Assembly (NCBI RefSeq): GCF_963676685.1
Contig: NC_092344.1
Span: 31,558,001-31,622,000 of the forward strand
DNA: 64,000 nucleotides
Direction of reading: 5' to 3'
Source: Mytilus edulis
Taxonomy: Eukaryota
Below are positions 27,123 to 56,600 of this stretch, piece after piece. Made by a program: the position numbers and the translations under genes. Position 1 is the first letter of the stretch. Each line of letters starts with the position of its first letter. A model generated the notes under the pieces. That model saw only the letters and a program-made list of their open reading frames with translations, was not told the DNA's origin and ran no database searches.

Positions 27123-30100
27123 ATGGATCTTATGCATCGTTTTTTGTACTCAGCTTTTCTGAATTTGATAATAAGCGGTAAGTTTTGATAAGCACTTAAA
27201 TACTACAAATATTCTACCAAATACCCTGTAGTGAAATTTTCTGATACCGGGTATATATTAAAAAAAATTATGTATTTTTAGGTAAACCTTAATTCTTATT
27301 CGGTTTGATATATACGATTGTTTTTGTCTGTTGGATGAATCTAATTCACTTTACCAACAGTGCCACATGTACGATGTTAAGATAAGTATTGATTTACAAT
27401 TTTTCATGTGAAGAACTTATACTAAAAATTGAAATTAACTTTGTAAATTCCATGCATTCGAAGCGCTTTTCTGACCTACATCAGGAACGCTCAAGCCGAA
27501 TATTTGAAAGCCAATGATGAAGGACCAAAATATGATAGCCAACTCCATCTCAGCTCAACGAATCATGAGGGATTTCTTAATAACTTCTGAATTTATAAAT
27601 AGACATTTTAAGAAAAGTTTGTTATAAATTGTGTCAGTAACGAAATACTGACTTCTGAGCTGATCTTACCCTCGAGTTCTGATAGTACAGCAGCAGCGGT
27701 ATCGACCCAGTGCTGTAGAAAATGTTATTAATTTCATGCGTCCGAAGCGCTTTTCTTGATTTACCTTCATCAATAACACTCAAAATATAGTCAATCTTGC
27801 GTAGTTGAAATTTGGCTTCGTAATAATTTCTGAATTTATAAACTCACTATTTAAGAAGCGTTTGTTATAAGTCATATCAGAACTGACAAATAAGCTGATA
27901 ATAACCACCAATAGGTTACCGCCAGTGTCACCCACATTGCATACAACGTCAAAAGTAATATTATTGTGTTATTATGAATAGCAAGGAAAAACTAATTCAA
28001 CACAAACTTTTTCAAAAAATATTTATAACATTTCATAATCAATGAAATGTGAAACATAATTAGACCATACACCACCCAACTTCTACTAGCAATACAGTAC
28101 TGATGATTGTCCCCATTTAGCGTGGTAAATATATGTCTTTTTGATATTAACAAAACCTAAATATGTTATACAGAAACACCACATTACTGTGAATATAAAA
28201 CACATAGATGTGGTATGACTGCCAATGAGTTAACTCTCCACAGGAGACCAAATGACACAGTTAATAACAGCCATAGGTCATCATACGGCCTTTAACAATG
28301 AGCATTGCCCATACCGCATAGTCAGCTATAAAAGGACCTGAAATCACAAATGTAAAAAATCAAAAGAGAAAACTAACGGCCTAATTAATGTACAAAAATG
28401 AACGAATAATTCATTTGTAGTTAAATCGAATAAGCCATTGAAACTGCTTTTCTATGCCAAGTGTTTTATGATTGAAAATATTCATGTAAGAAAATAACCT
28501 AAATTTTTTCATAGATATAAAGCTTTAGTGTGAATCGGGTGGTTTTACATATACACATCTTAATATAGTAATTAGGAAATCGCTACCGAATGTCAACAGT
28601 GATGTAGTTTGTATGGTTTGTTTATCTTGTTAATTAGCTACAGTCCATATACATTAAAATATTCTTTTAAATAAAGTCTTTGTTAAAGGTTATCAATTCA
28701 ACACTGCAGTAAGATCATGGAATATTGTTTCCATCGGATATAACATTGATTGTATTGTTAATAGTTTAACGCATAACTAATCATGCATTGTTAATTATAT
28801 CCAATTATTAATTGTATGAACGTTATATTTTTACATTGCATATTGTCATGTTTTTTCAGTCTGTGTATGATGAATGTACTGATTTAACACCCCGTCGGAG
28901 ATGAACTGATAAAATTCAAGTTTGACAGAACGTTGTTTATTTATAAGTTGAGTTTTGGGTTTGAAATAGCAATCGATAGCTGCGAGTACTCTACGATCGA
29001 TTTTTGGTGTTTTTTTTGTGCCGATCTAATGTGTCAATTCGGTTCTGACTGATTTTCGTTTTACAACTTTGAATACTCGATTTTACGTGCCCTTTAACTT
29101 CGTACTTGATTTGGCTTTCCATACTTTATTTGTTTGACCGCCACTGATGAGTCTTATGTAGGTAACTGCCTCTCAGATTTATAATCTTATATTTTGTTGT
29201 TGTAATATAAACCAGGCAGTTGATTTTGATTTGTGAATATTATTGTTTTACATGTTGTCAAGCTGGTTTCTATTATAGTCTATGATTTGTCCTTGAACCT
29301 ACGAGACCCGCGTTTCCTTTTTCATTGAGAGGCCTTCTTACAAAATCGTGATGAGAGAATTCATTTGCATACATAATTGACTTTTGTGACAAAAAAATGA
29401 CTTTTGTGACACAAAAAGTAATTCAATATTTTTTTGTACCTTTAATATTAATAAGAAATTGACATTTTCCAGTTTGGGAAGCTAATAGTGAATACTGTTA
29501 CTATGTCTACTCCTACTACTATCGTTATTATTACTACGAATGTGAAACAAGTGGGTAAGTAACATTTTCATTTGTGTGCTTATTTTCTATTTCTTTTCTA
29601 TTTATTATAAAAAAAAGTTTAATCTTACACTCATTAATAAAATTGCTAACATTAACTTATGACCGAGCTGCAAAAATGTTATGCAAGTGGACAGGAGAAC
29701 AAAGGGAATTTTTCTTATAATTTGCCTAAATGAAGATTTTACTCTTTCAAACATATTATAAAAAGTATGAGTCACCGTGATATTTTTGAAGCTACAAGTA
29801 GGTGCAAATTTGCACACATTTCCATAGTTTGTTCATAAAAAAAATACATTTTTGTGAATAAAAAGAAATCTTTGAAATTGAATTTTGAAATAAAATTTGA
29901 GAAGATAGGTATTATAATATGCGTGAAGAAAAAAAAATACAAAATGGTGTCACTTGTTTTCTTGCTACAAGTTTAAAATCAAAATTTAACTATTACTCTA
30001 GTAAAACACTTTAATATGAAAAGTATCTCCCCTTAAATGGTTTAGTTGAAAAATTGACTAAAGAACACAAATACATAAATTGCAAATATGTCATAAAATT

Positions 30101-33100
30101 TGCAGATTAAGGCAAAGAACAAGACCGATTATGTACTAATAAACATAATTGCATTAACTTTGACAAACTATACACTCGATGAAAATGCGTCTACAGGTTG
30201 TCGTTTGTCGTTTATTAGTACAAACGATGCATTTATTTTTTCGCAGTAAAATAGAGGTATGTTCTTGCTTCGCATAACTGAAAACAATGTCTAAAATTAC
30301 TCGAGCTTCGGTATTACGCTCCTTTATTTCATTGCTGTTATTTTCAATAAAAAGGCTTTATCGTTACTATCTTCATACATTCATCTGATGAAGACGAAGA
30401 CCTGCCAATGGAATTTAATATGCATAGAGGAGCGATGTCCTCTGTGTTGATAACATCTTCTACGGAGGCTAATTTCCCCGCGTAACAAGTTCAAATACCA
30501 ACAGCATGTGCATGCATTTTTTGACAGTTCAAACAGGGTCAGTAAACACTGATTAAACGATGCAATTGTTTCTTCTTTTGTCACTTTTAACAAACTTTAA
30601 CAAACGGCACACAACGTTTAGCAAACTTTGATAAGAAAGAAATGCACTCTATAGTCAGTAAAAAGGTATATTAATAGGTTGCCACACAAATGATAAAAAA
30701 ACATTCGTTTGTGGACAAGGTCTTTCGGTATATTTAGAATAATTACAAATGATTCACGCTCATCGTTCTTATATTTTTTGAGTAACTCTTTTATTTTCTA
30801 GTGGTACGATAGCTGGTGCTGTAATCGGAGCTATTATCTTTGTAATATTTATTGCTGTCTTTATTGCCGTGTGTAAGAACAAGAATAGAACGAGGGTGAC
30901 AACTATTCATACAGCACCTCATCATGGTGGACCAACTATTATCACACAGCAGCAACAACAGCACGGTAATCTTAGCTAATATAATGTTTAGGTGGATTTC
31001 ATTGTTACTGTTATGATAGTATTGAGACTACTTCGGATCAGTTGCACACATTTTACAGCCATGTGTCTTCCTTTGGAGCCTGCATGTTGTCATTTCTGGC
31101 AACTGTTTTTGTCTTTGGTTTGTTTTATTGTTTTGTTTTGCTTGCTTTGGCAAAATATTTTTCTTGTAGTTTAAATTTTAAAATGACTGTTTTTAAGTAG
31201 CAGCGAGAGAGAGTATAAACTACCTTGAAGAATTCGTTTTTAAGAATTGAGATTGTCCCTTTAGTTTTTTCTGCCTGCTTATTGAACCTTTTATATAAAA
31301 AACTGCTTTCTGTCGTTCTTTAATTTTCAAAATAGCTAGAGGCACTCAAGGGTCTGTGTCGCTCACTTGTATATACTGTTTTTTTTTTAAACAATGTTAA
31401 ATAAGGTTAATTTTAAAATAGTATAAGATACCATAATAATGATTGAGGCCAAGTTTGGTTTACTAGTAATTTGGCCCAGTAGTTAAATTAAAAGCAGGTC
31501 ATCCCATTGTAGTCTAACAATAGTTACTGAAGACCCCTTATCATTATTTAAATTAGTTTTCAAGTTGTGACCATTTGAAAATGTTTTTTTTACAATATTC
31601 CCTTAGACTTTTATAGTAAACCCATATGTTCTATATTAAACCATGGCGGCCACATTAGTTGGATGTTCATCGGATACATTTTTCAATCAAGATACTCTAT
31701 TGAAAATTGTTGCTAAGTTTATTTCTTAATACATGTAGCCCAGTATATTTAGGATATATTCTTCTAACTTTTCAGTCTCGTTGAAATCTCGTACTGGAAT
31801 TAACGATACAAGTGGAAAATATCAATAAATTTAAAAAATGTTATAATCAAACGTAACTCTGTGAAAAAATTGAGTGTTTACAATAAGTAGTTTTGAGTAA
31901 CCAATTTTTCAAATTTTCTAACCAATTAGTCAGTCTTTTTAGTCATTTTTTTTTTAGGAAATAACTGAAGAGTACACGGAATGATTCACACCTACCTGTA
32001 GGTTTTTTTTTAAAGTTAAATTTATTCAGATTGGTCCAAACCATCTTTATTGAAAGTATGATAAAAAGTTTAATTGTGGAACAGTACTATGATTTTTTTT
32101 TCGATAATAGCCCCAACATTGGTAAAACTTGATGCAAATGGGAAAATCATCAAAATTAGGTACTTTCAAATGGCCGTAGCAAAAAAGGAGTGTACTACCA
32201 TATGATTTTTTCTTCGGCAATTATTTTTTTTACACTGATATAAACCCCAAAATCAGGTTAAGAAAAACAGTTCAATTCTAGAAATTTTGGCTCCTCAGAG
32301 GTGTACATGCTTAAGTGGAGAAGATTTTATGTAAAAGATTACAAAATATAAGAAAAATTTACTATGGAGGGCAATAAATTCTAAAGGGGCCAATTGACAA
32401 TTTTGGTATTTTGACTGATTAGTAGATCGTACTTTGTTGATCATAATTGCTGTTTACAGTTTATTTTTTATCTATAATAATATTTAAGATAAAAACCAAA
32501 AACTGCAAAATTTTCCTCAAATTACCAATTCAGGGGTAGCAACCCAACAACGGATTGTCTGATTCGTCAGGGCCGATAGATCTCAACCTTATTATAATTT
32601 TTATCAATGTCAGATTTGCTCTAAATGCTTCAGTTTCAGAGATAAAAGCCGAAACTACATTTAAACCATATCTTCTATTTTAATCCTTGTTGGTTGGCAG
32701 GCAGGATCATCGGGCACATTTTTCAACTAGATACATTGTACCCTAATGATGATTGTAGTTAAGTTAGGTTACAGTAGTAGTTTCAGAGGAAATTATTTTT
32801 GGAAATTACAAAAATGTGCAAAAAATTGTTAAAAATTGGCTATAAAGGGCAATAACTCGAAATTTTTTAGTATGTTGACTAATTTGTAGATCTTACTTTT
32901 CTGAACATTATTGCTGTTCACAGTTTATTTCTATCTATAATAATATTCAAGATTATTGCCAAAAACTGTAAAATGTCCTTAAAATAAACAATTCAAGAGA
33001 AGCAACCCATCAACGTGTTTTCAGATTTGTCTGAAAATTTCAGGGCCGATATATTTCATCCTGATAAACATTTTACAAAACAAAAACACAAAACAACAAG

Positions 33101-33268
33101 TTTTCAATAGATATGTTTCGATATGTCTTTGTTTTTGCAGGTCACCAACCAATGATGTATGGTCAGTATCCACAACCAGGCGGCGTAATGTATAACCAAC
33201 CACCAGCGTATCCTCCACCTCAGGCAAACTATCCACCTCCACAAGGAAATTATCCACCGAAATACTAA
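27123..33268 (+). CDS. CYYR1/Shisa-like single-pass membrane protein, paralog B; join(27123..27177, 29473..29554, 30802..30965, 33141..33268), 142 aa
   Basis: Protein: MDLMHRFLYSAFLNLIISVWEANS-EYCYYVYSYYYRYYYYECETSG-GTIAGAVIGAIIFVIFIAVFIAVC-KNKNRTRV...QQQQQH...QPPAYPPPQANYPPPQGNYPPKY. Canonical splice sites, frame preserved, AATAAA at 33348. Confidence 0.9.
27445..27940 (-). mobile_element. degenerate tandem (~285 bp) copies of a second hammerhead-bearing retrozyme/PLE-type repeat
   Basis: CGAAGCGCTTTTC near 27459 and 27744. The inferred consensus on the minus strand is GCGUUC CUGAUGA..GAAA AGCGCU UC GGACGC, and each copy has core mutations. Confidence 0.55.
31335..33075 (-). mobile_element. 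decayed H2/H5-family HINE in intron 3 of paralog B, interrupted by an unrelated insert at about 31760-32312
   Basis: CTAGAGGCACTCAAGGGTCTGTGTCGCTCAC start and the same internal repeat text as 4741-8131 and 9869-11127. Confidence 0.65.
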
Positions 33269-34381
33269 CAGTTTATCTCCTTCAACAAACTATCAATATA
33301 GATATAAACAGTGTTTAATATATATACACTACTAGTTTTGTATTGTGAATAAACTTATTTTTTCCATATTTGTATTGATATTAAATTCTTACTTTTACCT
33401 ATCTGAGTAACACATATAAAATTTAATAATATTGTTCAATCGGCATCCATTTCTTTAACGAAAAATAAAATCCTGATGATTTGATAAATGTAAAACAAAA
33501 TATAAAAATCTTTGGATTGTAACGACAACTTTAATGATATTTTTACATTTTGTTACCGAAATAATGGCCTTTGGAATGCAATTTTGATATATATTTTGAC
33601 ATACATAGCTTTCGACGAGTAGTTATATATTTCATATTTATCAGATGATATCGGTATGAACACTGGAACATCGCAAAAGGAAACAAAAGAAATTGAAATT
33701 GACGAAAGCACCGCAAACTGTGATAATCGTGTTGAAAATAACTGGTTTCTTTTCGATGGTACCAATTTTCCTGGATACTAGACAATACGTATTATGTGGA
33801 TATTTAATTTCGTTTTTGTGCCAAAGTGTTTATACAAGTATATTTGTACTTTGTTGAGCATTTAAACTTTTGTTTTATCTTAGCCAATGCAATCAACGAA
33901 AATTGGTATTCAACGAATAATAATGAATCCACGGTATATGGTGAACATCTTGTGAAAATATAACTGCATACAGAAAAGTTTGAAAGAGAACGCCTTAATT
34001 ATATTGATAAATCCTTCACTCTTCCATCTAATACCTATTCATTTACGTCCAAATACCAAATATTTCAATGTTTTTTACTTCAGAATATTCAATTAAGAAT
34101 GTATACATGTTAGTCACGAGGTGTACACTCAACGCTCCATTTAAACTATGACAACAATCTTGTAAATATCAGTTGAAAATTGAGGGTTTGACCCATGTTC
34201 TCCAAGATTCAAACCGTATTTAGTTAGTTTACAACATATCTAGTAAAGGACACCGTCAGCAGTAAGTAAATAGTACTTTCTTGTGCAATGATGAAATAGA
34301 AGTATCAGCAGGTACAGTAAATCTGATTTTTTAAATTTCAAGTCTGTATAGTTATCAAAGAAACCAGGGCTATAATTTGGT

Positions 34382-34425
34382 ACGCCAGACGCGCGTTTCG
34401 TCTACACAAGACTCACCAGTGACGC
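34382..34425 (-). ncRNA. hammerhead ribozyme copy with a core substitution (CUGGUGA), probably inactive
   Basis: Same stems as the 25456 copy, but CUGAUGA is changed to CUGGUGA. Confidence 0.7.
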
Positions 34426-35091
34426 TCAGATCGAAATAGTCTAAAGTTGAAGAGCATTATTTGTTTGCGAGGAAATTTAATCTGTATCAGTACATTAATA
34501 TAACCAGATCCTGACTTTTAACTAATTGCGACAGAGTGCTTAATCGGAATACTTGTGCAGACCACTGATGATATTCAACGGAAATTTGCGCTAACCAATT
34601 TTCTTCCATGTATTTCCATTTAGGATGGTCTTCACAAAGAATGTATGATTGACTTGCTTCAAGTATTTCCTCTTATCACAGTCTTTTGAAATAATGCACT
34701 CTTGACTATTCATGATGTCTTTTAATTGTTAAAGGCTTAACAGTATTTGTTTAAGTGTTTCTTGCAGGTTTTGTTTTACCTATTTCTGCTAGTGACGACA
34801 CTGCCCTCTCCTTAAATGCAGAGTGTGCCTTTGTATAATACCAGAACTAGTCAATTTATAAATGGTCCAATTAAGGAAGTTCATCACTGCATGGTATATT
34901 TATATTATGCTTTTTATCCAAATTGTAAAGGACATAACAAAACAAAGAATAATCAACCTTTGTATCATCTGATAGTATCTGACGCAATCTGTATTGAATG
35001 ACAATTTTTAAATTGCAAAGTATATTGTTCAAACACAGTATTCTTGTACAATAAGAATTTGGATCTTTTAAAAGACACTTTAAAAGTAATA

Positions 35092-38000
35092 ATGGATCTG
35101 ATACATCGTTTGTTGTGCTCGGCTTTTCTGAACTTAGTAATAAGCGGTAAGTTTTTATAAACACTGACTCCAAATAATTTATCAATTATCTGAACCAGAA
35201 TACAGACCGGTCGATATTGATTAAAAAAGATTGATTTTAAGGTTTACCTTTTTTTTTAATCCGGTTTTATATATATGATTTGTTTTTGTCTGCTGCTTGA
35301 GTTTTAGTATACATATAATTCACTGAACTAGCAGTGCCATATGCACGATGCTAAGATAATTATTGAGAGATGTGATTTTCACATTTTCTGACGTATATGC
35401 AAAATTTAGTCCTGGTATCTATGATGAGTCTATTTTCAACCACTGGGTCGATGCCACTGCTGGTGGAGATATATTTCCCCGAGGGTATCACAAACCCAGT
35501 AGTCAGCACTTTTTGTGCTGACATGAATTATCATTGATATGGTTACATTTATAAATTAACTGTTTACAAAATTTTGAATTTTTTGAAATAATAAGGCTTT
35601 TCTACCTCAGGCATATATTACCATAGCTGGATTTGGCAAAACGTTTAGAAATTTTGCTCCTCAATGCTCTTCAACTTCATACTTTTTAACTTCTTTGGAT
35701 TCGAGCGTCACTGATGAGTCTTTTGTAGACGAAACGCGCGTCTGGCGTATATACAAAATTTAGTCCTGGTATCTATGATGAGTTTATTTTCATGGTATGA
35801 ATTTATTCTAAAAAATCAAAACAAAACTTCAGAAAATTCCGACAAGCCTTTCTGAATATTATAAGGAATTCCAAAAGTCGAATATTCGAAAGTCAAATTG
35901 AATGATGTTGACGAGCTATATTTGACCAAAAAGGACCTACATATAATAGCAAAATCAACTTCAGCTCAACTTCGCATGAGGCATTTGAAGCTTTAGTTTC
36001 TCAAGTATTGATAGTCTTATGTAGAGGAAACGCGCATCTGGCGTACTAAATTATAATCCTGGTACTTTTAATAACTATTCTGGAGATAAAAATAGACAGT
36101 TCAAGAAAAGTTTGTTATTAATGGTGTCGGTAACAGACTATTAAGCTGATGATACCCTCGGAGACTGATAGTCTACCAGCAGCGGTATCGCCCTAGTGCG
36201 ATGAAAAAGGAGAACAACACTTTATTAATTTCAATTGCCCAAAGCGCTTTTCTGTTTTTTTCTGGTTTTACAACACCAGGAACACTTAAAACCGAATATT
36301 TAATAGTCATGCGTGTACAAGTTGAAACATTAGTTGCGGAAAAAATTCTGAATTTTGTTAAACAATGACTGCTGTATTTTTTCTGTCTATGAAGATAACA
36401 ATAAAAATGTAGTGCACACTGAATAACTCGCGTAGCGGGTTATTTTAAAGTGTGCACCACAATTTTGATGCTATTTCGAATAGACAGAAAAAGGTACAGT
36501 CATTCCTTGTAATTTAATACTAAATTCTAGAAAAACGAAAAAAACGTTGATGACGCCACGGTCACATGCCAAAATTATGTTTATGAGCTGATAGACAAAA
36601 AAGCTGTCAGCCAATAAGAAGACGCGTTACGTCCAAAATTAAATTATAAACGGACAATTGAAGAAAAGTTTGTTATTAATCATGTTAGTACTGACTCCTG
36701 AGCTGATGATACCCCCGAAGACTGATAATCCACTAAGTACTACTGTCAGTGTCATCCACATCGCATACAACGACAAAGTAACATTATTATGTAATTACAA
36801 AAATAATCACATTCGAGTAGTATGTTTATTTATCATTATCTGGCTCTGGTTACTTTTCTGAAGAAACAAAATGACATGTATGCCGCGATAAATGTACGAA
36901 AGAGTCGAAAGATACCAAAGGGACATTCAATCTCATACGTCTTAAATAAACCCAACTGACAACACCAAGGCAAAAATGAAAAAAGACCAAACAGACAACT
37001 GTATTCAAAAAGCAACATAGAAAACTAAAGACTAAGCAAAACGAACCCAACCAAATTCGGGATTGATCTCAAATTCTCTTGAAGAGAAAGTCAATCCGGC
37101 TCCATATCTGGCACCCGTCATGTCGCTTTGCATAATGACAAAATGTAAAAAATGAAATATCTTTTAGTAAAGATAACATGCGTTCTTAATTAGTGTTCCG
37201 ACAAAGTTTTTATTCTATATCAATGTTTGGAAGCGAGGGCTGATGTCATCTTACTTGTGTTACAAAATAGTATTATCTCAAAAAGCTTGGATGGCTTCCG
37301 ATTTTTTTAAAATTTGGTTAGCAACATGCATACAGAAACAGTTATCAAAGGAACCAGGATTATAATTTTAAAAGCCAGACGCGCGTTTCGTCCAAATACG
37401 GCTAAGATAATCTATTCCAGGGATAAGAAAATCCTTAGTTTTTTTTTTTAAATTCAAAGTTTTGTAACAGGAAATTTATAAAAATGACCATATAATTGAT
37501 ATTCATGTCAACACCGAAGTGCTGACTACTGGGCTGGTGATACCCTCTGGGACGAAACGTCCACCAGCAGAGAAAAAAATCGAATTTTGCAATTAATCGT
37601 TATAATTCATACGCAGTTGTGCAAATAAATGATATCGTTAACAATGAGGTTAAAAAGAAGACATCTAACGACGATTTAATATCATATGTCGAAAAGCAAA
37701 CAACAGAAAAATAACAGTCCAAAAACAAATCACAGAAAGGAGTAGGTCCGGTAAGGACCGATTTTGGCCTCAAATTTCAGGTTCATCTGACGAAAGATTT
37801 TGACCACTTGTTAAACACTTAAGTGTCTATTTTATTTGAATTAATTAGTTTATGTGAAAGATTTTAACAGATTTAGTCATTAAAAACGATCCGATTCAAG
37901 CTCAAATATGAAAAATCTACCTAATATGCCGAAAAATGTCACTTTTCAGATGGTTTTTGGTAAAAATGAAAGTGGCCGCATCCGTGTTCATCCTCAACCT

Positions 38001-41000: not shown

Positions 41001-44000
41001 GAATAAGTTCTTATCTAAAATATTTAACTAGATACTTACCACTGGTATCTTCAAACAAGAATAAAGAAAGGAACACATTTATAATTTTTTGGATTTCAAA
41101 AATGTATATAGAAAGTTTACGAGTTCACGATATAGTTCTTGAAAATGAATTCTACTTTTCCAATTAGAGATGATATAAATCTGTTGTAGAGTTGTCACTG
41201 GTTCGGACGTACTTATAAATATAATTATTTCTGTGACTGTATCTTGCATTAATTTGTAGGATCCTTTACTATAGATAATTCACCTGATCTGTAACAAAAC
41301 CATCTTCATGCCTTATATATAATGTACTGTATTACGATTAAAGCTGACGAGGAAAGGTAACACACGGCTACCGAAAGCTTTGGTTTTGAAGCCAGTGGTC
41401 TAGCCCGCCGGATACATTGCATGCAATTTGGTGTAACGATATCTCAGAAGCATGAGTTCGAATCCCGGCGAGGGAAGAACAAAAATTTGTGAAAGCAATT
41501 TTACAGATCTAACATCGTTTGGCTGATGATTAGACGAGTTAAATATATATATATATATATTCCGTCTCGATCCCTAACATCACTGAAGAGAGATTTATTG
41601 TCGAAATCCGGATCTGGTGTACAAAACAATATTGTCTCTTTATGTTTGTGGCATAACATCTTAGCCACTAGTTAATTGTTTTCTGTTTAGTATTAAAGTT
41701 ATATTAAGATCCATTTTGTTACATCTTGTGATCAATTTTATTTGACAATCGCCAATGGCAGTCAGCAGGGTTAAAGAACATCAGTTGTTCGACCTGTTAG
41801 TCAAATGCGTTTTGTTTTCAATTTAGACGTGTATAAACAAGTCTAAATTGAAAACTACGTTCAAACCTATGATTGCGTTAGGTTGGAACGTAGTTTTCAA
41901 TTAAGACTTGTATATATATATATATATATACATACATATATAAACAAGTTTAAATTGAAAACTACGTTCAAACTTAAGATTGCGTTGGATAAAAATCTCA
42001 ATTTGTATACGTGTGCATGTAAAACAAATTTCGTTGTAGAAGGGTCTAAATATATACAATCGATTTTTTAAACTTTGTGGACAAACTATCAATCTGCATG
42101 TTTCCCAAAGAACCTAAATAAATATCTATCTATGATCAATATTTGTAACTCGGATTTTTATTTGCAGTTAATGAAATAAGTGGCGAATACTGTTACTATG
42201 TCTACTATAACGTCTATGGATATTATTACTATAAATGTGAGACTGAAGTAAATGGGTATGTAACATTTTTGTTTTTCTTATCTAGTTCTCTCTTTTTCAT
42301 TGTTATGTGGCGTGATAAAACATGTTTGTGATATTTATCAATCATCTCACATGAGCTTTTTATTCCTAGATTATAAACAATAATTTTCGGCAGAGCTACA
42401 AAAATGTCATGTCAGGGAACGTGATTACAGGAGGTTAATACACACCTTATTTGTGTTATCAACTCCCCTTTACTATCAAACTAGATCACAGATTCAAACT
42501 TAAGTTTTAAAATTTATCTTTGGTATTATTGATATTTGAGAAACTTACCCCTATCTTCCAAATTTGGGAACTAAGTCGTTTTCAGAAAAATCAAAAGTCC
42601 TGCTACAGTTATCAAACCAGAACCTTGTAACTTTACAGAATGATTGCACATATGTTTCACTTGTTCATCATCAGGAATTGTTTGCGGAATATGTTCTCGA
42701 TTTTTTGAACTTTTATTTTTACCAAAATCGTTGAAACTTTACAGAAAGGTTTTAAAAACGATATTAAGAATCGAATAATATAAAAGCATTATGTTCTCAA
42801 AGCTTTTAGTTGTAACGAAATGAATATACAAATACATTATTAGGAAAATTGTACCTTAATAAGAGAAATGAATACCTTCTGCATTTTACTAGATCAACAA
42901 ACATATAATAAAAAAAAACATTCGTTTTCATTAGTATCTTTAGATATTGTTTGCTATCATTTTACAAAAGAGGGACATTCAAACTCATAAATCTAAAATA
43001 AATTTACAACGCCATGGCTATAAAAGAAATAGACAAACAGACAGACAACACTACAAAAACACAACTTAGAAAACTATAGACTTACCAACACGAACCTCAC
43101 CAAAAAATGAGAGTCTTCTCAGGTGCTCTCGAAGGGTAATCAGATCATGCTCCGCATGTGGTACCCGTCGTGTTGCTCATGTTAGTAAAAACCCGGTAAC
43201 ATGTCTAGTTTTCTAGGTCACATTCAAGAAAAGGTACGGAATTGTATTTAAGATGTTAGGATCAGAGCCGCTATGATAATGAAAAACGGTCAACACAACC
43301 ACGATGGTGTCTGTTAAATTTATGAAGGATTCACACTCGTTGTACTTATATCTCTTGATTTACACTTATTTTTTTCTAGTGGTGCGATAGCTGGTGCTGT
43401 AATCGGAGTTTTCTTCGGTATAGTATTTGTCTCTACCGTTATTGGTATGTGTAAGAAAAAGTGTGGGACAAGAGTTTCAACTATTCATCCAACACCTCAT
43501 CATGGTGGACCAACTGTTATCACACAACAGCAACAACAACACGGTAATCTTAATTCACAGAAAGTATCGGTGAATTTTCATCATTATGAAAAATTTGAAA
43601 ATGCATTACATTGGCAATGCATGCTCAAAGATTTACAAAATATATGTTACAGGTTGCAAACGCACGTTATTTTACTCTATATAACCAACTTCAAAAACAA
43701 AGCAAAAGTACAATATTGTTTACGATTTAACTGTTTTCGTATATAGTTTCTATAACGGCATATAGTTTAATACGTTTTGCATCCCTTGAAACAGGTTTCT
43801 ATTTTCAAAACATGAGCCACGTGTATATTATATCATAAAATATATTCAATAACGCCCAATTTGAATCGTTAAGTAATTGATTACAATGCACTATTGGAAT
43901 GTTTTTAAATGAAAATCAAATCAGATTACGATCTTGAAATAATATATTCAATTAACTGTTTAAAATTTTGAAACAATTGTTTACCGTTTGATATCGCCTA

Positions 44001-44566
44001 TCAAAATGAAATATGAATACGATTAACGAGTTAAAAAAACCAAGCACATAAGATATGTTTTATACTTTTTAATCTTAAATATTATTTATTTGCCTCTGAT
44101 TCTGCACTGACTTTAAATACTGGTTTTAGATTGGGCCCGTTTTGTTTCATTTCCTTAATACAACTGTGACCGATTGTAAAAGTTAAATTGACATATGTTC
44201 TCATCGTTCGAAGATCATTCTGCGTTAAAATGATAGATGATACATAAGTACTTATGAATGTGAAAGCTACGAATGAATGTATAGAACAAAACAAAAATCC
44301 TATTCAAAGAAAATTCCTTCTTTGTGTTCTACAAAACCTTTCAAGTACATACATTTTTTCTATGAAATAAACATTGAAGACAACAATAATGAGTAACAAT
44401 AAATCAGTAAGAAATGGACGTGTTTCGACATTACTTTGTTATTGCAGGTCCGTCACAGATGATGTATGGCCAGTATGGGCAATATCCACAACCAGGCGCT
44501 GTTATGTATGATCAACCACCAGCATATCCACCACCATCGCAACCAAATTATCCACCAAAATACTAA
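35092..44566 (+). CDS. CYYR1/Shisa-like single-pass membrane protein, paralog C; join(35092..35146, 42168..42255, 43380..43543, 44448..44566), 141 aa
   Basis: Protein: MDLIHRLLCSAFLNLVISVNEISG-EYCYYVYYNVYGYYYYKCETEVNG-GAIAGAVIGVFFGIVFVSTVIGMC-KKKCGTRV...QPPAYPPPSQPNYPPKY. Canonical splice sites, AATAAA at 44606. Confidence 0.9.
35389..35791 (+). mobile_element. non-LTR retrozyme: one 354-nt unit plus a ~50-nt terminal direct repeat
   Basis: TGRCGTATATRCAAAATTTAGTCCTGGTATCTATGATGAGT occurs at 35389 and 35743. The unit begins exactly at the hammerhead cleavage site and is absent from the paralogous intron position in gene B (about 27400). Confidence 0.8.
35705..35748 (+). ncRNA. minimal type I hammerhead ribozyme (intact core), predicted cleavage after C35742
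   Basis: GCGUCA CUGAUGA GUCU-UUUGU-AGAC GAAA CGCGCG UC UGGCGU: stem I, conserved core, stem II, palindromic stem III and a GUC triplet. Confidence 0.88.
37340..37570 (-). mobile_element. internally deleted retrozyme copy (half a hammerhead)
   Basis: GCCAGACGCGCGTTTCGTC is joined directly to retrozyme body sequence matching the reverse complement of about 35460-35640. Confidence 0.65.
37738..38317. mobile_element. 580-bp non-autonomous TIR element (Kolobok-type ends)
   Basis: AGGAGTAGGTCCGGTAAG..ACC / GGTCTTACTGAACCTACTCCT|TTAA, with an internal IR at 37969-37995 vs 38050-38076. The left TSD is imperfect. Confidence 0.65.
38984..39200. mobile_element. TA-flanked MITE rich in TTCGCG motifs
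   Basis: TA|CTGTAAACCAACTTATTTTCGCG ... CGCGAAAATAAGTTGGTTTACAG|TA. An empty paralogous site is present near 28080. Confidence 0.85.
41390..41490 (+). repeat. tRNA-derived SINE-like head (Pol III A/B boxes)
   Basis: AGTGGTCTAG (A-box-like) and GAGTTCGAATCCC (B box). No cloverleaf or acceptor stem is visible. Confidence 0.45.
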
Positions 44567-46546: not shown

Positions 46547-48074
46547 TTAGTTCTTTTTGCCAATGTTACTTCTTGGGGCATTTCTACGGTTTGGGTTCCA
46601 GATCGATGTGAAATCGCGATCAACATTTTCATTCCAATGACAAACTGCCAACTGACTTCTAGCCATTACTAAAAGCAATTTTTTTTTATCTTGGAACATG
46701 TTCATAGTATTGTTAAAGCTCTCAACATAACATGTATCTTTGGCTAACACATAATCCTCAGGGTGGGTGTAAATTGTAGATTTCCGAATAACACCTAGGA
46801 GAAGTTTTTCAGCAATTGGTATTGAAATAATTATCCGCTTAGGTTCGTAATTTGTATCACGTTTACATCGTGAATCAGATGACACTTCTGGTGGTTGTTC
46901 TTATAATGTTCCACAATATTTAGTAATACATCCTTTAATTCCTTTGGATTTTCTTCACAGTTTCTAACAGCCCAATGAAAATGGGTGGCAACTGATTCCA
47001 CCTTGTCCTCTAGTTGAGCAGACCAGGACTTTTCTTTTAAATATTTTGGTCCCGCAGATACTCTTTTCATTGCAACTTTAACCTTTTTGATGGCATGCCA
47101 TGGATCGTTCTGATTTGTAATAATTCCTGTTTCTTTTACCAGCTTGTTAATACTCAAATTTCAAGTCATGAGAATGTACATTAACTTGAATGTCTTGCTC
47201 TTCCAAGTAATGGTAGATTCGTTGTGTTCCCAATTTTTCATGGCGCTGTGATACCGAATCATCAGATTTTGTAATATGTTCACATTTAAGAACTTTGTGG
47301 ATTTTTTTCTTTTATGGCAACAACACTGCTGTCTTTTGCATTTTTACGCCAGCCATGACGAGCATCTGTCATTATGTTAATTCCTGTCAATTCATCGTAC
47401 ATTCCAATTTCTTCTAGTACTGCTGACTCAATACTTTCATTGTATTGCTGTTCAATATGATTTTTATATCTTTGAAACATGTATTGCTGTTTTTGTTTGT
47501 TGATATGTCTTATTTTAGCAGCATTAGCAAATCTGTTGTAGTGCACTGGTAACATTCCGCTACAAATATATCCGTGAAATGTCCTCAAGTTTGCAAGGTA
47601 TTCACCGTTAGGTAAATAAGGAGACGATGACCATAACATGGAATGGTGTTTATCAGTGTCACAATTAAAACGCACTGCAGCTACATGTCCTTTTGGTGTC
47701 AACTTCTTTATACTGAAATGTCCATTGTGAATGGAAGAGTGGTTTTCTACAACTTTGATGATTTTCTGTAGTGATGTTTCAGCCGTTAGGAATAATTTTT
47801 GATCGACATCTTTTTCCTACACCTGGATGTAGGTATTTAAATATAATGTTGTCATATCAGACTTTGAGGACTGTCCATTATGGTCAAGAAGAAAATAGTC
47901 TAAGACCTCCTCTAAGATGTCAGCATTATTTACAGGGTGATTCAGTTGCTGTCCAAGTATAGTCCGAACTTTTTGTAACTTTGAAAGTACTAATTGCTTT
48001 TTACTGTCATCTCCAGGAACAGAAATTTTGAAGCAAGGTGGTCGTTTTGTTTCTTTTTCCATTTTCAATAGCAA
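46547..48074 (-). pseudogene. Kolobok-like DDE transposase, disrupted
   Basis: Four ORF pieces join across an in-frame TAG (47817-47819) and frameshifts near 47305, 47160 and 46880. Motifs TDARHGW, VHSHD, DPWH, TCYVESFNN and RSQLAVCHWNEN resemble Kolobok transposases (recognised from memory). Confidence 0.7.
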
Positions 48075-48834
48075 GTGAATAATACCAGAATACTAAAAGT
48101 AACTGATGCAAAATAATATTATACATCTAGAAGATTATCTACATGATCTAATTGTAAACAGTCGTAAAATTTGACCCAGTCTAGGACATTTTGGACCATT
48201 GCAGGGGTTTGTTTTATTTATATTTTTATCTACAAATCCTAAGTAATAATATTATGGATATAACAATTTAATAATTACATTATAGCAATTGACATTTTTT
48301 AAATATGGAATTATAGGGAGTGGGGACAGTAAGAATTAAATAAATTATGAAACATGCACTGTCCTTATTGATAGCCTCCCTCAATTTGAAAGGGGGTTCT
48401 AAAGGAGTACTGGACTTAATTTTCAAAGCATTAGAGACACAATGTTGTACAAAATTATGTTTGGTATGTTTTAAAAATAATCATTAGGTCAGTTTTTGTC
48501 CCGTATGTAAAATCTTCTCGTGTAAAACATAAAATATGAATGCAATCTCTCCTGTAGGTACCTTATTATAATATGAGGTGTGTAAAACACTGGGAATATG
48601 ATATCCAAGGTATTTGATGCTAAGATTTGGAGGGAAAAATATTGTTGTTTTATTGCTACAGTTTGATAAAAGGAAGTCGTGTAAATTAGATATAAAATAT
48701 AGACTTGACAAAATGGAGAAAATAGCACTTCTTGTCACTGAAGAACAAAAGGAAACTATTTACAGTTAATTGGATATTACAACTGGGATGTAAAGTTAGT
48801 AGATAGTAATAATGAGATTGCACAAGTTGCAACT

Positions 48835-49224
48835 ATGTCCACACAAACTAGTGACAATGTACAGGAGGAGATAGAAGATGGAATTGAAGAAAACCAATTC
48901 CGCATAGAACAAGACCAAGAATGTGAGGAATTCTCCTTTTGTTTTTGCAAACCTTGCATTACTAGTGAAAACACCAGACACATGTGGTGGGAAAGTGAAC
49001 CTCACGGGAGACATCAAAGAAATCATAGTTTGCGAAAAGAAAACTACAAATATTTCTGGACAATGATGTTTCACCGTGAAGCTTGGAAGGATGACAGATA
49101 TTTATTACGAAAACAAGCTGCTCTTGAAAGAGACCCTAAATTTAAAAATTACACATGGCATAAAAGAGATTTAATTTATAAAAGTGGCATTTGTTTGGGA
49201 TATAACATTTTTTTTAAACATTAG
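48835..49224 (+). pseudogene. divergently transcribed second ORF of the transposon (KolX/P2X7 C-terminal-like), apparently 3'-truncated
   Basis: CxxxxxCxCxPC, R..NYKYFW, W..RYL.RK and WHKRDL. The coding-like sequence stops at about 49173, where a P-x-C-V-type motif would be expected. It lies head-to-head with the transposase. Confidence 0.5.
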
Positions 49225-50640
49225 TTGGCACAACAGATTAAAAGACTATCTATATTCTGAAGCTTTGAAAGGATTATATAATTGAATGATTCCCTGCAAT
49301 TAGTAAGTAGATTTTCATTTCACAAATGCATGCATTAGATTATAGATAACAAAGCCACATGTAGCATGCTACTTCAGTTGTAAACATAAACAGAAAGTTG
49401 TTGTCTTGGATATCTCCTCCTACTTGTCAATCACAGGAATTTGAATTTGAAAAATAGCTGTGCTTCAGGATTTTTATTTAAAATATCTTTATTGTGAGTT
49501 ATTTTATTTTCTCACTTTTTGGTCTTAACTGACCATTATTTATGTTCTGACAACTGTACAAGTTTAAAAGTAAAGAAGATAGCAATTTTTGAATTAATTT
49601 TGAAAAATGCTTCTCAATTCTTAACCCTGCCCAATATTTGAATAAAATCATATTTTCATGAATTGTCTCCCTTTTATACCCTAACCCCGATCTAATGTAA
49701 ATTATATGAAGAGAGAGGGATCGGAGAGAGAAATGAATTATTCAACAAGAATATTAAGCCGATATATTATTGAACAGTAGTTTTAATAAGAATCCTTCAT
49801 CTTATATTAAACAATGAGTTAAAATCATATTTATGTAAACAATTATCTAATATCAAAACCAGACATGAAATTTAGGTTCACGAATGAATTTCTTTTTTCA
49901 AAGACGGCAATTTGTCGATAACAAATATTTCTTTTAGTGATTGATGATCGGGAACAGATTAACTGTCTAGAATGTTGCCAACATGAACCGGATCGTGACA
50001 TTTATAAACTATAATTGCTCAGAACGTGGAGTTCGTGAAACAATAAACGATAAAGATAGAGCCATGCTACGTTCCCATTTGTTAACAAAAATTTAACAGC
50101 TGTAAATTGATTTGATTGTTAAGAATCAATTATGTACTTCAGTGCACGATTGTTCAAATTCTTTCCTAAAGGTTTCACCCTTGCTGCGATATGCAGATGC
50201 GGGAGTTCTTACAAGAGGTCTCATAGTTAAGGTTATTGTATTCGGAAAATTACTAGCGAATTAGTTACAGATAGACAATGATTCAATAGCTGTAAATTTA
50301 TGAAAAATTTGATTTATCTGAAAGGTTTTCCTTAACAAGAAAGTTAATGTTCACGTGTTTTGAAGTAAAGCTCAGTAAAACGTATATAAAACATATTTGT
50401 TTCTAAATATGAAGTTTAATATGAATATAAAAGAATCACTTTATTTTATATCTTGACTGTTGTCTTTTCAATTTGTAAAATATACAAAAGAAAGAATAAT
50501 CAACCTTTGTTATACGTGATACTGTCTAAATCAATGTGATTTGAATAATAATATTTAAATTACAAAGTCTATTGTTCATTCCCATAATTATGGTACAATA
50601 ACAGTTTTGTCTCATTTATACGTCACTTGAGAAAATAGCC

Positions 50641-53600
50641 ATGGATCTTGTACGTCGTATTTTGTTCTCTTCACTTCTGAATTTAATAATAAGCGGTAAG
50701 TTTGATAAGCACATAAAGTACTGTACTGAGTTTCCCGCAGTAACTGGTAATTGGCTTTTCTGTCAGCGTCACCAAAATCAAGCACAGCGTAAAAAGAAAA
50801 GTAAACGTGTCATTACAAAAGCAAGGGTAAAAAATCAAATCAGAAGTAATAATTTTATTTATTATCACGTGACTCTTACTTTAAATTTTAATAAAGCATT
50901 ATGTCATACTTAACCCTCCTCTAGAAATAAATTTTAAGATATACTAGAACACATTAGTGGCTGAATTAAAGTACGTACACCTTGTAATATGAAAACGTCA
51001 TGTTGGTTATAAAAGAGGGACGAAAGATACCAAAGGGACAGTCAAACTCATAAATCTAAAACAAACTGAAAACGCCATGGCTAAAAATGAAAAAGACAAA
51101 CAGAAAAACAATAGTACACATGACACAACATAGAAAACTAGAGGAATAAACAACACGAACCCCACCAAAAACTAGGGGTGATCTCAGGTGCTCCGGAAGG
51201 GTAAGCAGATCCTGCTCCACATGTGGCACACGTCGTGTTGCTTATGTGATTACAAATCCGGTAAATAGTCTAATTCGGTAGGTCACATTCATGAAAGGGA
51301 AGGGGATTGTAGTTACGACGTACGGAACATATCCGATTTCCGATATCATTTGTGAAACATATATGGTGCGCACGTTCCTGTTTGAAGCCGTCTTGGTTTT
51401 CTTAATTACTACAACTGGTAACATATGTGACAATTACTATTGGTATCGATATCGTATTCGACCCAGAACTTATATATTGATTTTAATAGTGTGGATAGCA
51501 AAAAGGCCAAATGGTGTAACTTTTAATTAAAGTTGAATCCTCTGATTTATTTATTTCCCGTTTTTTAGGAAAGGGGATATCAAATTAGACTTTTTTATTA
51601 GTAGTAAAGATTCACGTTTGAACTTATGTTTATTTTTAAAGAGTTTGTGACAAGTTATCACAAACTCTTATTTTATATAGATAATGTTTGAAATCGTAAG
51701 GTTTGTAAACAGGTCTAACATGATTATTTCACAAAATTATACCGTATAGCGGGCTATTTTCGCGGTTGTAAAGATTCGCTATTTTCATTAAATAAACTTT
51801 TTAATTGGCGGTTAATATTCTGACGAATTCAAAACTTATATCAATACCTTTGCATGTGTCATTTTGAACTGACATAATTTATTTTTAGGATTTTGTTCTA
51901 TTCGCGAAAATAAGCGAAAACTTACATCCCGCGAAAATAACCCGTTTTACGGTAATAAATTATAGAGATAGGATTGATATTTCGTTTATCTGGTTAAATC
52001 ATAATATTTGCTACAAAATTATGCAAGAGATCATGTCGTACCCCTAATGTAAAAACGAAGACAAATACCGCAGTTAAAAAAGTCGAGAGTACACAAACAA
52101 CAGATGACGAACGACATTGATGGACAAGCCTTAGAAATATTTCAGAAATTTGTCTGTATCATTTTTTCTTATATGTCAAACATAATTTAAATTAACACTT
52201 ATCAGCTACTGCCAAAGGTACAGTAATACTGGTGTTTGTATAGTTTGTCCGTAAGATACCTTCCATCAAATTTGAATGTTCTTTTAAATAAACTCATTAT
52301 TTAATGTCAATAATTAAGTACGCATATAAGATCATGTAACATTATATTTATCTGTAAAATCATTGGGTGTTTTTTTGACAGTTAAATGTATATCTAGTCA
52401 TGCATTTGTATCAATGTATTGACAATTTTTGTCCTTAATTATGTCGAAATTCATACGTTGGCAGTGTACAGTATCGTGATTTTTCAGACTGTTTATGCTG
52501 AATTTAAAATCAGATATGTTCTTTGTAAACTGAAACTTTTGAGAGCGTGGTTTGTTTATCAAATGCATTTAGATTTGAAATAGCTATATCCATGGATATG
52601 ACAAAGAACATCCCGTCTTTTTATAATAAAAAGTTCACCAGAAGAGTACCAAGACCTTGTTAATAAATATTTTGTGTCACTTCACAAATAATACACGATG
52701 GTCACGAAATACAGATTTTAGGTATTACGTTATTTATCATCTTAATGATTTCAATATTAAAATATTTTTTTCTTTTTCTTTGTAGAGTATTACCGTAAAC
52801 GTTTTATTTTATTTTTGACCATATTCATTTGACGTAGCTCAATTCTCCTACATCCCGTCATTTAGTTTTTGTACCATAGTATTTTTTTGTATTCTTGTCG
52901 TTTAATTATCTTTGTTGATATGTTTGATTGTTTTATAGTGATGAGGATAATTACCTTATCATGTCTGTTTTTTTTGTGTTCACTGAACGTTATCAACATA
53001 ATAAATTTTTATGACTCTGTCGAGGATTTTCTACGTAAGAAAATACATATACCAAATTGTTATCCTTTCGTTTGTTTTTTTAGCTTTGAAATACTGTGGA
53101 TTAATTATTATTCGTTGGATACCAATTTTCGTGGATTCCGTGGGTATAAGAGAACCACGAAATTAAAGTTCAACGAATTCCAAATTTTATATAGGCTTGT
53201 ATACAGACCTTGTATGTCCGTTGCATGTCCGTTAAGCGTACGTTTTATCCGTCGGCGTCCGTTCTGTCCGGTGGAAAATTTTGATCATGTTCAAAACTTT
53301 GAACGGACGTCCAACGGATAAAATGTCCGTTGAACGTCCGTTAGGCGTCCGTTTTGTACGGAACTCGTCCATTTCGTTTCCGTTTTATAACCGTTACGAG
53401 TCCGTTAAACATCCGTTGGAGGTCTGGAAGATAAATTCACCAACGGACTTCTACCGGACGTTTAACGGATAAAACGGATGTTGAACGGATGAGAAACGGA
53501 CTTCTACCGGACTTATAACGGATAAAACGGATGATGAACGGATCTGAAACGGATAAATGCAAATTGAAAATTTCGCGTCAGAAATGCCAATTACTGGTAT

Positions 53601-56600
53601 GTCAGATTTCCTAAGGTTCCTGAATTCTTATTATTCATAATAGGTCTTTAGAGTAAGGGCACGTCTTCACAATCAAGCAGCTCTTATTTAGGCCACACAC
53701 TGCCCTTTGGCGGCATTTTGAAGAACAAACCAATTTCAATTACACAGAAACATTTTGAATATGTATGCGATTTACATGTATTATTATTGTCGCCTTTGAT
53801 TTTTCCGTATATCTTGTTCATCCGTTTTATCCGGTACACTTCCGTTAGGTGTCCGTTTTTGTGGTACTCGTCCGTTGAATGTACGTTCGACATCCGTTTT
53901 GTCCGGTACGTGTCTGTTTCTCGTACGTTGTATATCCGGTGTGTGTCCGTTATGCATCCGTTACACGTCCGTTTTATTCGGTCAGTACATCAACGGACTC
54001 CCAACGGATAACAATTTTGTCAACGGACAACTTTTATTTTCATCCGTTATGCGTCCTTCCGTGCTATCCGGTAAGGTGTGACCGAGGGTTTTGAACGGAC
54101 GTCCAACGGATAAAATGTCCGTTGAACGTCCGTTAGGTGTCCGTTTTGTACGGTACTCGTCCGTTTCATTTCCGTTTTGTATCCGTTACGTGTCCGTTAT
54201 ACATCCGTTGGAGGTCTGGAAGATAAATTCACCAACGGACTTCTACCGGACGTTTAACGGATAAAACGGATGTTGAACGGATGAGAAACGGACGTCTACC
54301 GGACGTATAACGGATAAAACAGATGATGAACGGATCTGAAACGGATAAATGCAAATTGAAAATTTCGCGTCAGAAATGCCAATTATTGGTATGTCAGATT
54401 TCTTAAGGTTCATCATTTCTTATTATTCATAATCGATCTTAGAGTATAGGCACGTCTTCACAATCAAGCAGTTCTTATTCAGGCCAGACACTGTCCTTTG
54501 GCGGAATTTTGAAGAATAAACCAAAACCAGTTACACAGAAACATTTTGAATATGTATGCGATTTACATGTATTGTTATTGTCGCCTTTGATTTTTCCGTA
54601 TATCTTGTTCATCCGTTTTATCCGGTACGCTTCCGTTAGGTGTCCGTTTTATGCGGTACTCGTCCGTTGGATGTATGTTCGACATCCGTTCTGTCCGGTT
54701 CGTGTCCGTTTCTCGTACCTTGCATATCCGGTGTGTGTCCGTTATGCATCCGTTACACGTCCGTTTTATTCGGTCAGTACATCAACGGACTCCCAACGGA
54801 TATTAATTTTGTCAGTGGAAAACTTTTATTTTCATCCGTTAGGCGTCTGTTCGTGCTATCCGGTAAGGTGTGACCGAGGCTTAACATTTCTTATCTTTAT
54901 TACCTTTCTATACATTTCTAGGAATATGATTGGTTAAAAGTGTCTGCGTGAAGACTGTGTATATTTCATATTAGGTTAGTACGGAGGCGGGGCTTATTTA
55001 GTACACGGTTAGTAGTGGTGTTACGTCCCTTTATATTCCATATTAGGTAATAAAGGAGGCGGGGCTTATTTCATGTACGGTTAGTAATGGTGTTACTTAC
55101 CTTTATGAAAACAAAACGGTACTGAGAAAAAATCTTAAAGGTTGCAACAGACGAAGAAACTGATGATTAAGGTGGAAATAAATTCATAAAACACATTTAA
55201 ACCTAACAAGTTGTTATTGTTGGCATCTGTTTTTGTAGGTTCAATGGAAGTAGTTTTTTTTAATGCGAACAGTATTGAAGAACCACTCATTTTGATAGGT
55301 CAAGTGCTAGTCTTAATTTCACACGTTAAGATAGTCGGTAAGATAAATTATTTTCACTTGTGCTAGTGACGTAATACGGTATATATGGGGTCATAAAATT
55401 CCATATGGGGATTCCAGCTTCGATCTCATATGGAATTTACTGACCCCATATATACCGTATCAGGTCACTAGCACCATATGTAACTAATAATATTTCTGTC
55501 CGTAGGTTCTTTGTGTTTTCTGGATGAATATTTGTTTTTTACCATATTATATGAATTGATTATATAGAAAATCAACCTTCCCTAACACAAGGAACACTAA
55601 AGGCACATATAATAATATGGCACTGGATGATAGTTAAAAAACTTCGTTTTGTATATTGTGTATCATAAACAATGAAAACGTTTTTGCGCCACTTTCAATA
55701 TCTGTCAATCTAACAAAGATAAAGATTTAATGTTTTTTTTTCTTCAGTTTTGGAAGTTTCTGGTGAATACTGTTACTACTACTATTCATACGACTATGGT
55801 TATTATTACTATGAATGTGACTATTCAGTAAGTGGGTAAGTAACATTTCCTTACTTCTTTGCCTATTTTAACCTTTGTTATATTAGTTAAAATTGTAATT
55901 CTACAGGACTTTACTGAAATGTCCTTTTCATTAATTCATCTGGGATGCCATATTGTTGAGCAGGTTAATTGATGAATAACACATCAGGCGGTTGTGAATA
56001 ATGTGTGTGTTTTTTTACTTTTTCATAAGTAAAACAAGTTAAGCATACAAGAACTTACAAAATTTCCAAATAATCTTTGAATTAGAAGACAAATGCAATG
56101 CTAGTATACCGATTTTTAAAAGTTAAAAAAAAAACAAAAAACTGTGGGAAACATATCAACTATCGGAGGAAAACAATGGAACATCAGGAACACTGACGTA
56201 TATCAAATAAAGGCAACAGTAGTATACCGCTGTTCAAAACTCATAAATCCATGGACAAAAAACAAAATCGGGGTAACAAACTAAAACTGAGGGAAACGCA
56301 TTAAATATAAGAGGAGACCAACAACACAACATCAAAATGTAACACAAACAGAAACGGACTAAGCATTAGACAAAATCCTATGAGAATAACAAATATAACA
56401 TCAAAACTAAATACATGAATTTGGGATAGATAAGTACCGTGACACATCTTATAGTAATGTGAATTCACACTAAAAAAATAAGAGAAAACAAACGCCAACA
56501 CACACAGAAACGAGCTATTTTATTACAACTGCCATATTCCTGACTTTTTAAAGACCATTATAAGAAAAAAAAAATGCTGTGTTAAACCTCCCGTTTTATG

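Follow-up and report, generated by a model that had tools for sequence, protein, structure and literature searches.

The window analysed here is a stretch of 64,000 nucleotides of Mytilus edulis (NCBI RefSeq assembly GCF_963676685.1, contig NC_092344.1, positions 31,558,001 to 31,622,000 of the forward strand). It contains four genes, A to D, each of which encodes a short loop bounded by two cysteines (Cys) and very rich in tyrosine (Tyr). The loops, which an earlier note had described from the DNA letters, are real and were correctly read: a six-frame scan recovers all four on the + strand where that note had placed them, and positions 1, 2, 4, 8 and 10-13 are indeed Tyr in loops B, C and D, in which Tyr accounts for 9-10 of the 14 residues. 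A chance motif is ruled out, as a C-x10..16-C segment with at least nine Tyr occurs three times in the window and in none of 60 fifth-order Markov simulations, where the Tyr maximum is 6. Each loop exon is small, has AG/GT ends and is the second of four exons, which encode a predicted signal peptide, the Tyr loop, a glycine-zipper transmembrane helix and a PPxY tail. The helix and the tail were absent from the earlier account.

Exon 1 is 55 bases long in genes B to D and encodes, together with the start of exon 2, a hydrophobic N-terminus that extends up to an EYC motif. Judging from the sequence and the structural model, this segment is a hydrophobic helix with small residues preceding EYC, and the signal peptide is predicted to be cleaved just before this motif, leaving an outer part of 18-24 residues. 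A single transmembrane helix follows the Cys loop, with a hydropathy of 2.5-3.2 over 19 residues in A-D (3.24 for exon 3 of gene B); it displays a GxxxGxxxG motif and is followed on the inner side by a Cys and basic residues. The whole gene B model is identical to a database protein (P0001) source-named Mytilus edulis. Splicing was assessed on contigs of four sequencing runs taken to be RNA: the GT..AG joint between exons 2 and 3 of gene B is found in three of them (X15, X17, X19), that between exons 3 and 4 in two (X17, X19), and that between exons 1 and 2 in one. In the raw-read run X24 the exons have almost no read depth and none of their joints is seen. A secreted free peptide is ruled out, because the helix and tail follow the loop in frame and are spliced onto it. 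The loop is thus predicted to be the membrane-tethered outer end of a single-pass protein. The features of the four genes are collected in Table 1.

Table 1. Exons and loops of genes A to D (positions in the window; transmembrane helices and signal peptides are predicted).
Feature	Positions	Strand	Remarks
Gene A, probable exon 1, signal peptide start	19664..19700	+	ATG to GT donor, phase 1, hydrophobic; best candidate only
Gene A, exon 2, C-x10-C loop	21410..21476	+	AG/GT ends
Gene A loop, C-x10-C	21430-21465	+	Six-frame scan
Gene A, exon 3, transmembrane helix, juxtamembrane Cys, Gln-rich end	22273..22448	+	Pfam CYYR1 E=0.015, below cut-off
Gene A, exon 4, long Ser/Pro/His tail, 63-bp repeat, one PPxY	23393..24049	+	
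Gene B, exon 1, signal peptide, phase 1	27123..27177	+	Joined to exon 2 in X19 RNA contig (loose end at 29472)
Gene B, exon 2, signal peptide end, C-x14-C Tyr loop, short stalk	29473..29554	+	Phases 1/2
Gene B loop, C-x14-C	29496-29543	+	Six-frame scan
Gene B, exon 3, GxxxGxxxG transmembrane helix, Cys, basic juxtamembrane stretch, poly-Gln	30802..30965	+	
Gene B, exon 4, Pro/Tyr tail, PPAY and terminal PPKY, stop	33141..33268	+	
Gene C, exon 1	35092..35146	+	
Gene C, exon 2, C-x14-C loop	42168..42255	+	
Gene C loop, C-x14-C	42191-42238	+	Six-frame scan
Gene C, exon 3, transmembrane helix	43380..43543	+	
Gene C, exon 4, PPAY, PPKY, stop	44448..44566	+	
Gene D, exon 1	50641..50695	+	
Gene D, exon 2, C-x14-C loop	55748..55835	+	
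Gene D loop, C-x14-C	55771-55818	+	Six-frame scan
Gene D, exon 3, transmembrane helix	57260..57420	+	D-specific letters in X15 and X19 contigs
Gene D, exon 4, PPAY, PPRY, stop	60166..60296	+	

The four genes belong to an array of 11 copies. The seven others (E-K), identified by a genome search with exon 3 of gene B and by fetching a further 150 kb downstream, lie on the same strand. All 11 copies possess four exons with GT/AG ends and intron phases 1/2/1. Gene G has a stop in its loop and gene K a broken tail. Both loop Cys are kept in all 11 copies; the outer part contains two Cys in A-J and four closely spaced ones in K, which has Cys at sites where neighbouring copies have Tyr or Ser. Two PPxY motifs are found in eight of the 11 copies, one in A and J, and none in K, so that a PY motif is present in 10 of them. 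For gene A, neither RNA nor database support was found for the candidate exon 1, nor a database protein for the gene. Its tail is tripled as compared to those of B-K and comprises, between positions 23475 and 23990, about five 63-bp repeats encoding 21-residue Ser/Pro/His/Thr units.

Seen across the whole array, the loop is more variable than the neighbouring copies B, C and D had suggested. Loop lengths in the 11 copies are 10, 14, 14, 14, 14, 13, 14, 10, 13, 10 and 12, the loop of gene K counting 12 residues, or 14 when measured to its next Cys. Among 28 two-Cys relatives in the listed matches of a deep search, loops of 10 residues are the most frequent (12 of 28) and 14 residues occurs in three of 28, the range being 5-15 except for one adjacent Cys pair. 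The fixed length claimed in the earlier note is rejected on this spread of 10-14 residues in the array; the impression arose because only three neighbouring copies had been seen. The constant Tyr flanks hold for B-D, whereas over 11 loops of 14 residues (five array copies and six other Mytilus records, two of which are isoforms of one gene) constant Tyr is confined to positions 1, 8 and 13. The DNA had also been called a slippage-prone (TAY)n tract. This description is not confirmed: the longest TAY run is four codons, TAT and TAC are mixed, and Tandem Repeats Finder reports no array in the loop exons. That the loop sits on an exon of its own, exon 2, is true of all 11 copies, but this layout is shared by part of the family and not by all of it.

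The family in question is that of CYYR1 and the Shisa-like proteins. P0003, a M. galloprovincialis protein one residue away from gene E, matches Pfam CYYR1 (PF10873) with 35.6 bits, above the cut-off of 31. Single exons scanned against Pfam stay below every cut-off, and exon 2 of B, C and D resembles no family at all; the CYYR1 model applied to the genome yields two weak matches, of which one is a genuine relative. The first ESM Atlas matches are mollusc clusters named “shisa-5-like” (0.94) and “CYYR1-like” (0.92); a search with part of the protein yields scores below 0.9 and serves merely as a lead. Since database names of this kind exist already, the family link is not new. A profile search of 1.84 billion representatives returned 199 matches at E 0.001. 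Among the 150 of these that were listed, 91 relatives were classified, after 27 had been left out by length and 32 for want of a clear signal. A rough automatic count of Cys in the outer part gives 34 with six or seven, 36 with two or three, 18 with none or one, and three with four or five. Oysters, a scallop, a limpet and a chiton provide the named examples with two or no Cys. A profile built from 32 six- and four-Cys relatives, array proteins excluded, scores B-J at E 8e-23 to 1e-14, and the profile–profile probability is 99.8%. Across the alignment of 36 sequences, the columns that do not vary are Cys27, Gly51 and Gly55. The Mytilus array forms its own branch (Shimodaira–Hasegawa-like approximate likelihood ratio test value of 97) in a family tree whose careful search is unfinished. 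In this tree, which is built on the helix and juxtamembrane segment and poorly resolved (4 of 67 branches starred), the Cys classes are mixed; as it is mostly unresolved, the number of Cys losses is not decided by the tree.

The genome of M. edulis contains further members of this family with two, four or six outer Cys (L016, L017, L018, L038, L044, L048, L049, L050), and an unlinked four-Cys gene exhibits the same four exons and phases as the array. In the four-Cys members, Cys number four and number six of the full pattern are missing, which hints that these two may pair. The second Cys of the array proteins aligns with the old second or the old fifth Cys, depending on the alignment.

CYYR1 resembles the array proteins in being ~140-155 residues long and encoded by four exons, and in having a signal peptide (predicted in the array), an outer part rich in Cys/Tyr, a single helix and a Pro-rich tail with several PPxY motifs. 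The array differs by its two outer Cys without a CCSYYAY box, by two PPxY motifs (PPAY and PP[KR]Y) instead of three PPPY, and by 11 copies instead of one gene. The STMC6/Shisa-like superfamily (Shisa-like, WBP1, WBP1L, VOPP1, TMEM92) was reportedly defined by Pei and Grishin in 2012. According to PMC5578492 and PMC6125347 its defining pattern is six Cys, C*C*CC*CC; features of the Shisa family are described in PMC10531659. The array proteins share with this superfamily a signal peptide (predicted in the array), the single helix with a Cys at its inner end and the PY ([LP]PxY) motifs, and their predicted hairpin lines up with the opening half of the six-Cys domain, but they have neither the C*C*CC*CC pattern nor a second hairpin. 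As the defining pattern is missing, the array genes are classed here as a reduced two-Cys derivative of the CYYR1/Shisa-like family rather than as true STMC6 members. Further close parallels are the molluscan “CYYR1-like/shisa-5-like” two-Cys or Cys-free proteins of Saccostrea, Crassostrea/Magallana, Ostrea, Mizuhopecten, Patella and Liolophura. They are organized alike, the helix being preceded by a C-xn-C loop rich in Tyr or simply by a Tyr-rich segment. Their loops are mostly of 9-10 residues followed by a Tyr-rich stalk, whereas the Mytilus array combines a 13-14-residue loop with a short stalk. No paper on this reduced molluscan form emerged from literature searches, and the defining 2012 paper may discuss Cys loss.

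AlphaFold2, run for gene B with the 36-sequence alignment, predicts a helix at residues 47-74, preceded by strands at 27-32 and 37-42 whose ends are formed by Cys27 and Cys42. The mean pLDDT (predicted local distance difference test) is 61.7 and the predicted template modelling score 0.29, with a pLDDT of 86 for residues 31-40. Of the disulfide-closed β-hairpin put forward in the earlier note, the hairpin is thus predicted, while the disulfide is suggested by the position of the two Cys. A six-Cys relative, modelled from an alignment that held three two-Cys rows, displays four strands before the helix, of which the two-Cys model has the first two only. These models suggest that the array proteins would keep the first of the two hairpins of the six-Cys domain. 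Foldseek gave no match at E 0.001 for the two-Cys model, and VIA-align, with a best Z of 4.3 and rows mostly covering the helix, nothing usable for the six-Cys model. For residues 25-78, the outcome of a self-pair prediction was “no answer” (score 0.03, mark 0.32), which is counted neither for nor against any reading.

Selection was analysed on the eight intact paralogs (B-F, H-J), leaving aside G for its stop, K for its broken tail and A for its divergence. By counting, the loop has a nonsynonymous rate (dN) of 0.30, as compared to 0.10-0.20 in the signal, helix, juxtamembrane and tail segments, and a dN/dS ratio (omega) of 0.68 (interval 0.32-1.22). A custom codon model with shared branch lengths gives an omega of 0.59 for the loop versus 0.37 for the rest (p=0.048). 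The six codons of the stalk reach 0.89 and the tail, the most constrained part, 0.24; loop and stalk together stand at 0.69 versus 0.34 elsewhere (p=0.0004). The loop thus changes faster than the rest of the protein, as the earlier note had anticipated, but the diversifying selection that it proposed is not supported: the loop omega lies significantly below 1 (p=0.018 against a fixed value of 1), and the site model finds no positively selected class (M1a vs M2a, p=1.0, with limited power on eight paralogs and 14 codons). About 34% of sites fit its neutral class. At the amino-acid level the paralogs are as alike in the loop (identity 0.68) as in signal and helix. The nearest paralog differs from exon to exon, and there are hints in these comparisons of gene conversion in the array, a possibility that weakens the tree-based tests. 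At the allele level, exon 2 of gene B shows no difference in runs X1, X3 and X19, X17 covering part of it only, and exon 3 shows two differences in X17. This observation covers a single gene, is read from contigs that drop rare variants and includes X1, which may be the assembled sample. The faster change of the loop between Mytilus species (see below) would fit relaxed constraint or mild diversification, and on the whole the loop appears to show relaxed rather than positive selection.

The reading that we consider probable on balance is that the array encodes PPxY adaptors for NEDD4-type ligases, in which hairpin and helix contact client membrane proteins. It is favoured because two PPxY motifs persist in the tail, which is the most conserved segment of the mussel proteins. 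Human CYYR1 is described as a four-exon gene product with a signal peptide, a transmembrane domain and PPPY motifs (PMC1863428) that binds WWP1, WWP2 and ITCH via paired PPxY motifs, resides on late endosomes and directs WWP1 to the lysosome; the same source presents WBP1L as an adaptor for CXCR4 ubiquitination (PMC11399591), and a second route via TRIM21 is reported (PMC13654864). By analogy with human CYYR1 and WBP1L, the mussel proteins would enter the secretory path as type I single-pass proteins with an outer domain of ~20-24 residues and would reside at the cell surface or in endosomes. Their cytoplasmic PPxY pair would bind WW domains, whereupon the ligase or a neighbouring client membrane protein would be ubiquitinated and sent to the lysosome. 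In the least certain step, the Tyr hairpin and the glycine-zipper helix would jointly touch the client, and paralogs might differ in client or tissue.

Several results weigh against this reading and the descent behind it. The best Pfam match of the gene B protein P0001 is CYYR1 with E 0.0024 and 18.7 bits, below the cut-off, which only one of 30 relatives scanned reaches. The six-/four-Cys profile scores K weakly (1e-6) and does not reach A (E=6.3), and the six-Cys set was itself drawn with an array-protein profile, making the reverse score partly circular. None of the array copies shows the six-Cys pattern, and no CCSYYAY box, nor any CC, occurs in the outer part of the 11 copies. Three six-Cys genes of the genome have no intron between Cys domain and helix, both being in one open frame. 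HECT domains are represented by 97 matches in the genome, a count of the HECT domain alone and not of WW-HECT ligases. A comparison of four proteins with their best matches in other Mytilus species finds differences at 12 of 54 loop residues versus 33 of 486 elsewhere (Fisher p=0.0007), and at 11 of 108 in the signal region alone (p=0.055 vs loop); this faster change of the loop leaves room for a receptor. The pairs represent the four of nine proteins with a clear best match, one of them (P0006) partly mis-predicted; P0002, P0008 and P0010 were set aside because their matches tied, P0005 because it combines two copies and P0007 because it comes from the same species.

A diversified binding surface is what the earlier note inferred when it compared the loops, by analogy only, with the third complementarity-determining region of antibody heavy chains (CDR-H3), whose Tyr/Ser/Gly-rich hairpin chemistry they share. 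The array has, in contrast, no immunoglobulin scaffold, 11 germline copies with no somatic diversification seen, and no positive selection detected. A diversified surface recognizing microbes, viruses or self cells, on a membrane receptor carrying its ligand to the lysosome, would agree with the raised omega of loop and stalk, with the loop differences between Mytilus species pairs, with tandem birth and death leaving one copy with a stop, and with the over-representation of Shisa-domain transcripts in the gill of another mussel, as given in PMC5549309. It is nevertheless unlikely, as omega stays below 1, no positive class emerges, loop length varies, the loop is as well conserved among paralogs as signal and helix, exon 2 of gene B shows no difference in the three runs covering it while exon 3 shows two in X17, and the supporting pairs represent four of nine proteins, one of them partly mis-predicted. 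The narrower proposal that molluscs have made of the CYYR1/Shisa-like adaptor a large family of minimal Tyr-hairpin receptors, a germline panel of membrane-protein degraders in which the hairpin of each paralog (10-15 residues) would pick a different surface protein or foreign ligand and the shared PPxY tail would hand it to NEDD4-mediated lysosomal removal, is quite unlikely.

Another option is that the helix and PPxY tail are functional while the hairpin is mostly a degenerate, sticky remnant and the outer part would merely have to be short and aromatic. Tyr richness would then be a family trait, Cys and Tyr codons being one transition apart. Among the 91 relatives classified in the listed matches, 12 without Cys and six with one are still Tyr-rich and loops range from 5 to 15 residues; the Cys of gene K at its neighbours' Tyr/Ser sites, the neutral class of sites and the mixing of Cys classes across the poorly resolved tree point the same way. 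A loop omega significantly below 1, the retention of both Cys in every copy and the predicted hairpin, with its pLDDT of 86 at residues 31-40, argue against a mere remnant, which we regard as rather unlikely. The tyrosines had also been proposed as substrates for sulfation, DOPA (3,4-dihydroxyphenylalanine) formation or cross-linking, and might anchor the protein to shell, byssus or matrix. Mussels do use Tyr-to-DOPA chemistry, and Tyr fills most of the loop. Sulfation sites usually need acidic neighbours, of which the B and C loops are almost devoid. Oyster, scallop, limpet and chiton records display the same Tyr-rich outer part, a predicted membrane-bound protein with a conserved cytoplasmic PPxY tail is at odds with such a role, and in vertebrates the family was named for its Cys/Tyr richness (PMC1863428). 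This last explanation is very improbable.

The array shows that the outer domain can shrink from six to two Cys (none in other molluscs) while Tyr richness, glycine-zipper helix and PPxY tail are kept. The available parts of the cited literature state no role for the CYYR1/Shisa-like outer domain. Eleven near-identical scaffolds differing mainly in a 20-residue outer part form a swap series suited to the question of whether that part selects the client.

A few observations concern the array and its surroundings. Two spare copies of exon 1, with ATG and donor intact, lie upstream of F and G (G000:C1:31637487 and 31664902); degraded pieces resembling exon 2 are found next to E, F and K (near G000:C1 31628600, 31644560 and 31739715). 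Genes B and C share a stretch of about 590 bases around exon 1 (26819-27392 and 34789-35366) that is 75% alike and recurs in part in D, marking a conserved upstream region. Intron 1 of gene D harbors, at 53298-54882, a head-to-tail duplicate of a 790-bp repeat-rich element (93% alike). The database isoform P0005 mixes copies, its exon 1 resembling E and the remainder I, while in P0009 exon 1 is in another frame and exon 2 is skipped; both may be mapping artefacts or read-through. Contig G000:C1335:1-32640 repeats the main contig from window position 58418 onward. It was rejected as a second allele, having no mismatch and 23 gaps in 32.6 kb, and is probably a redundant assembly piece. Upstream of the array, exons of WASH1, an endosomal actin regulator, occupy window positions 159-4489 on the - strand (Pfam WASH_WAHD E 1.5e-54). 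They are followed at 15091-18027, also on the - strand, by an open frame of 978 residues of the long interspersed nuclear element type, with endonuclease and reverse transcriptase domains.

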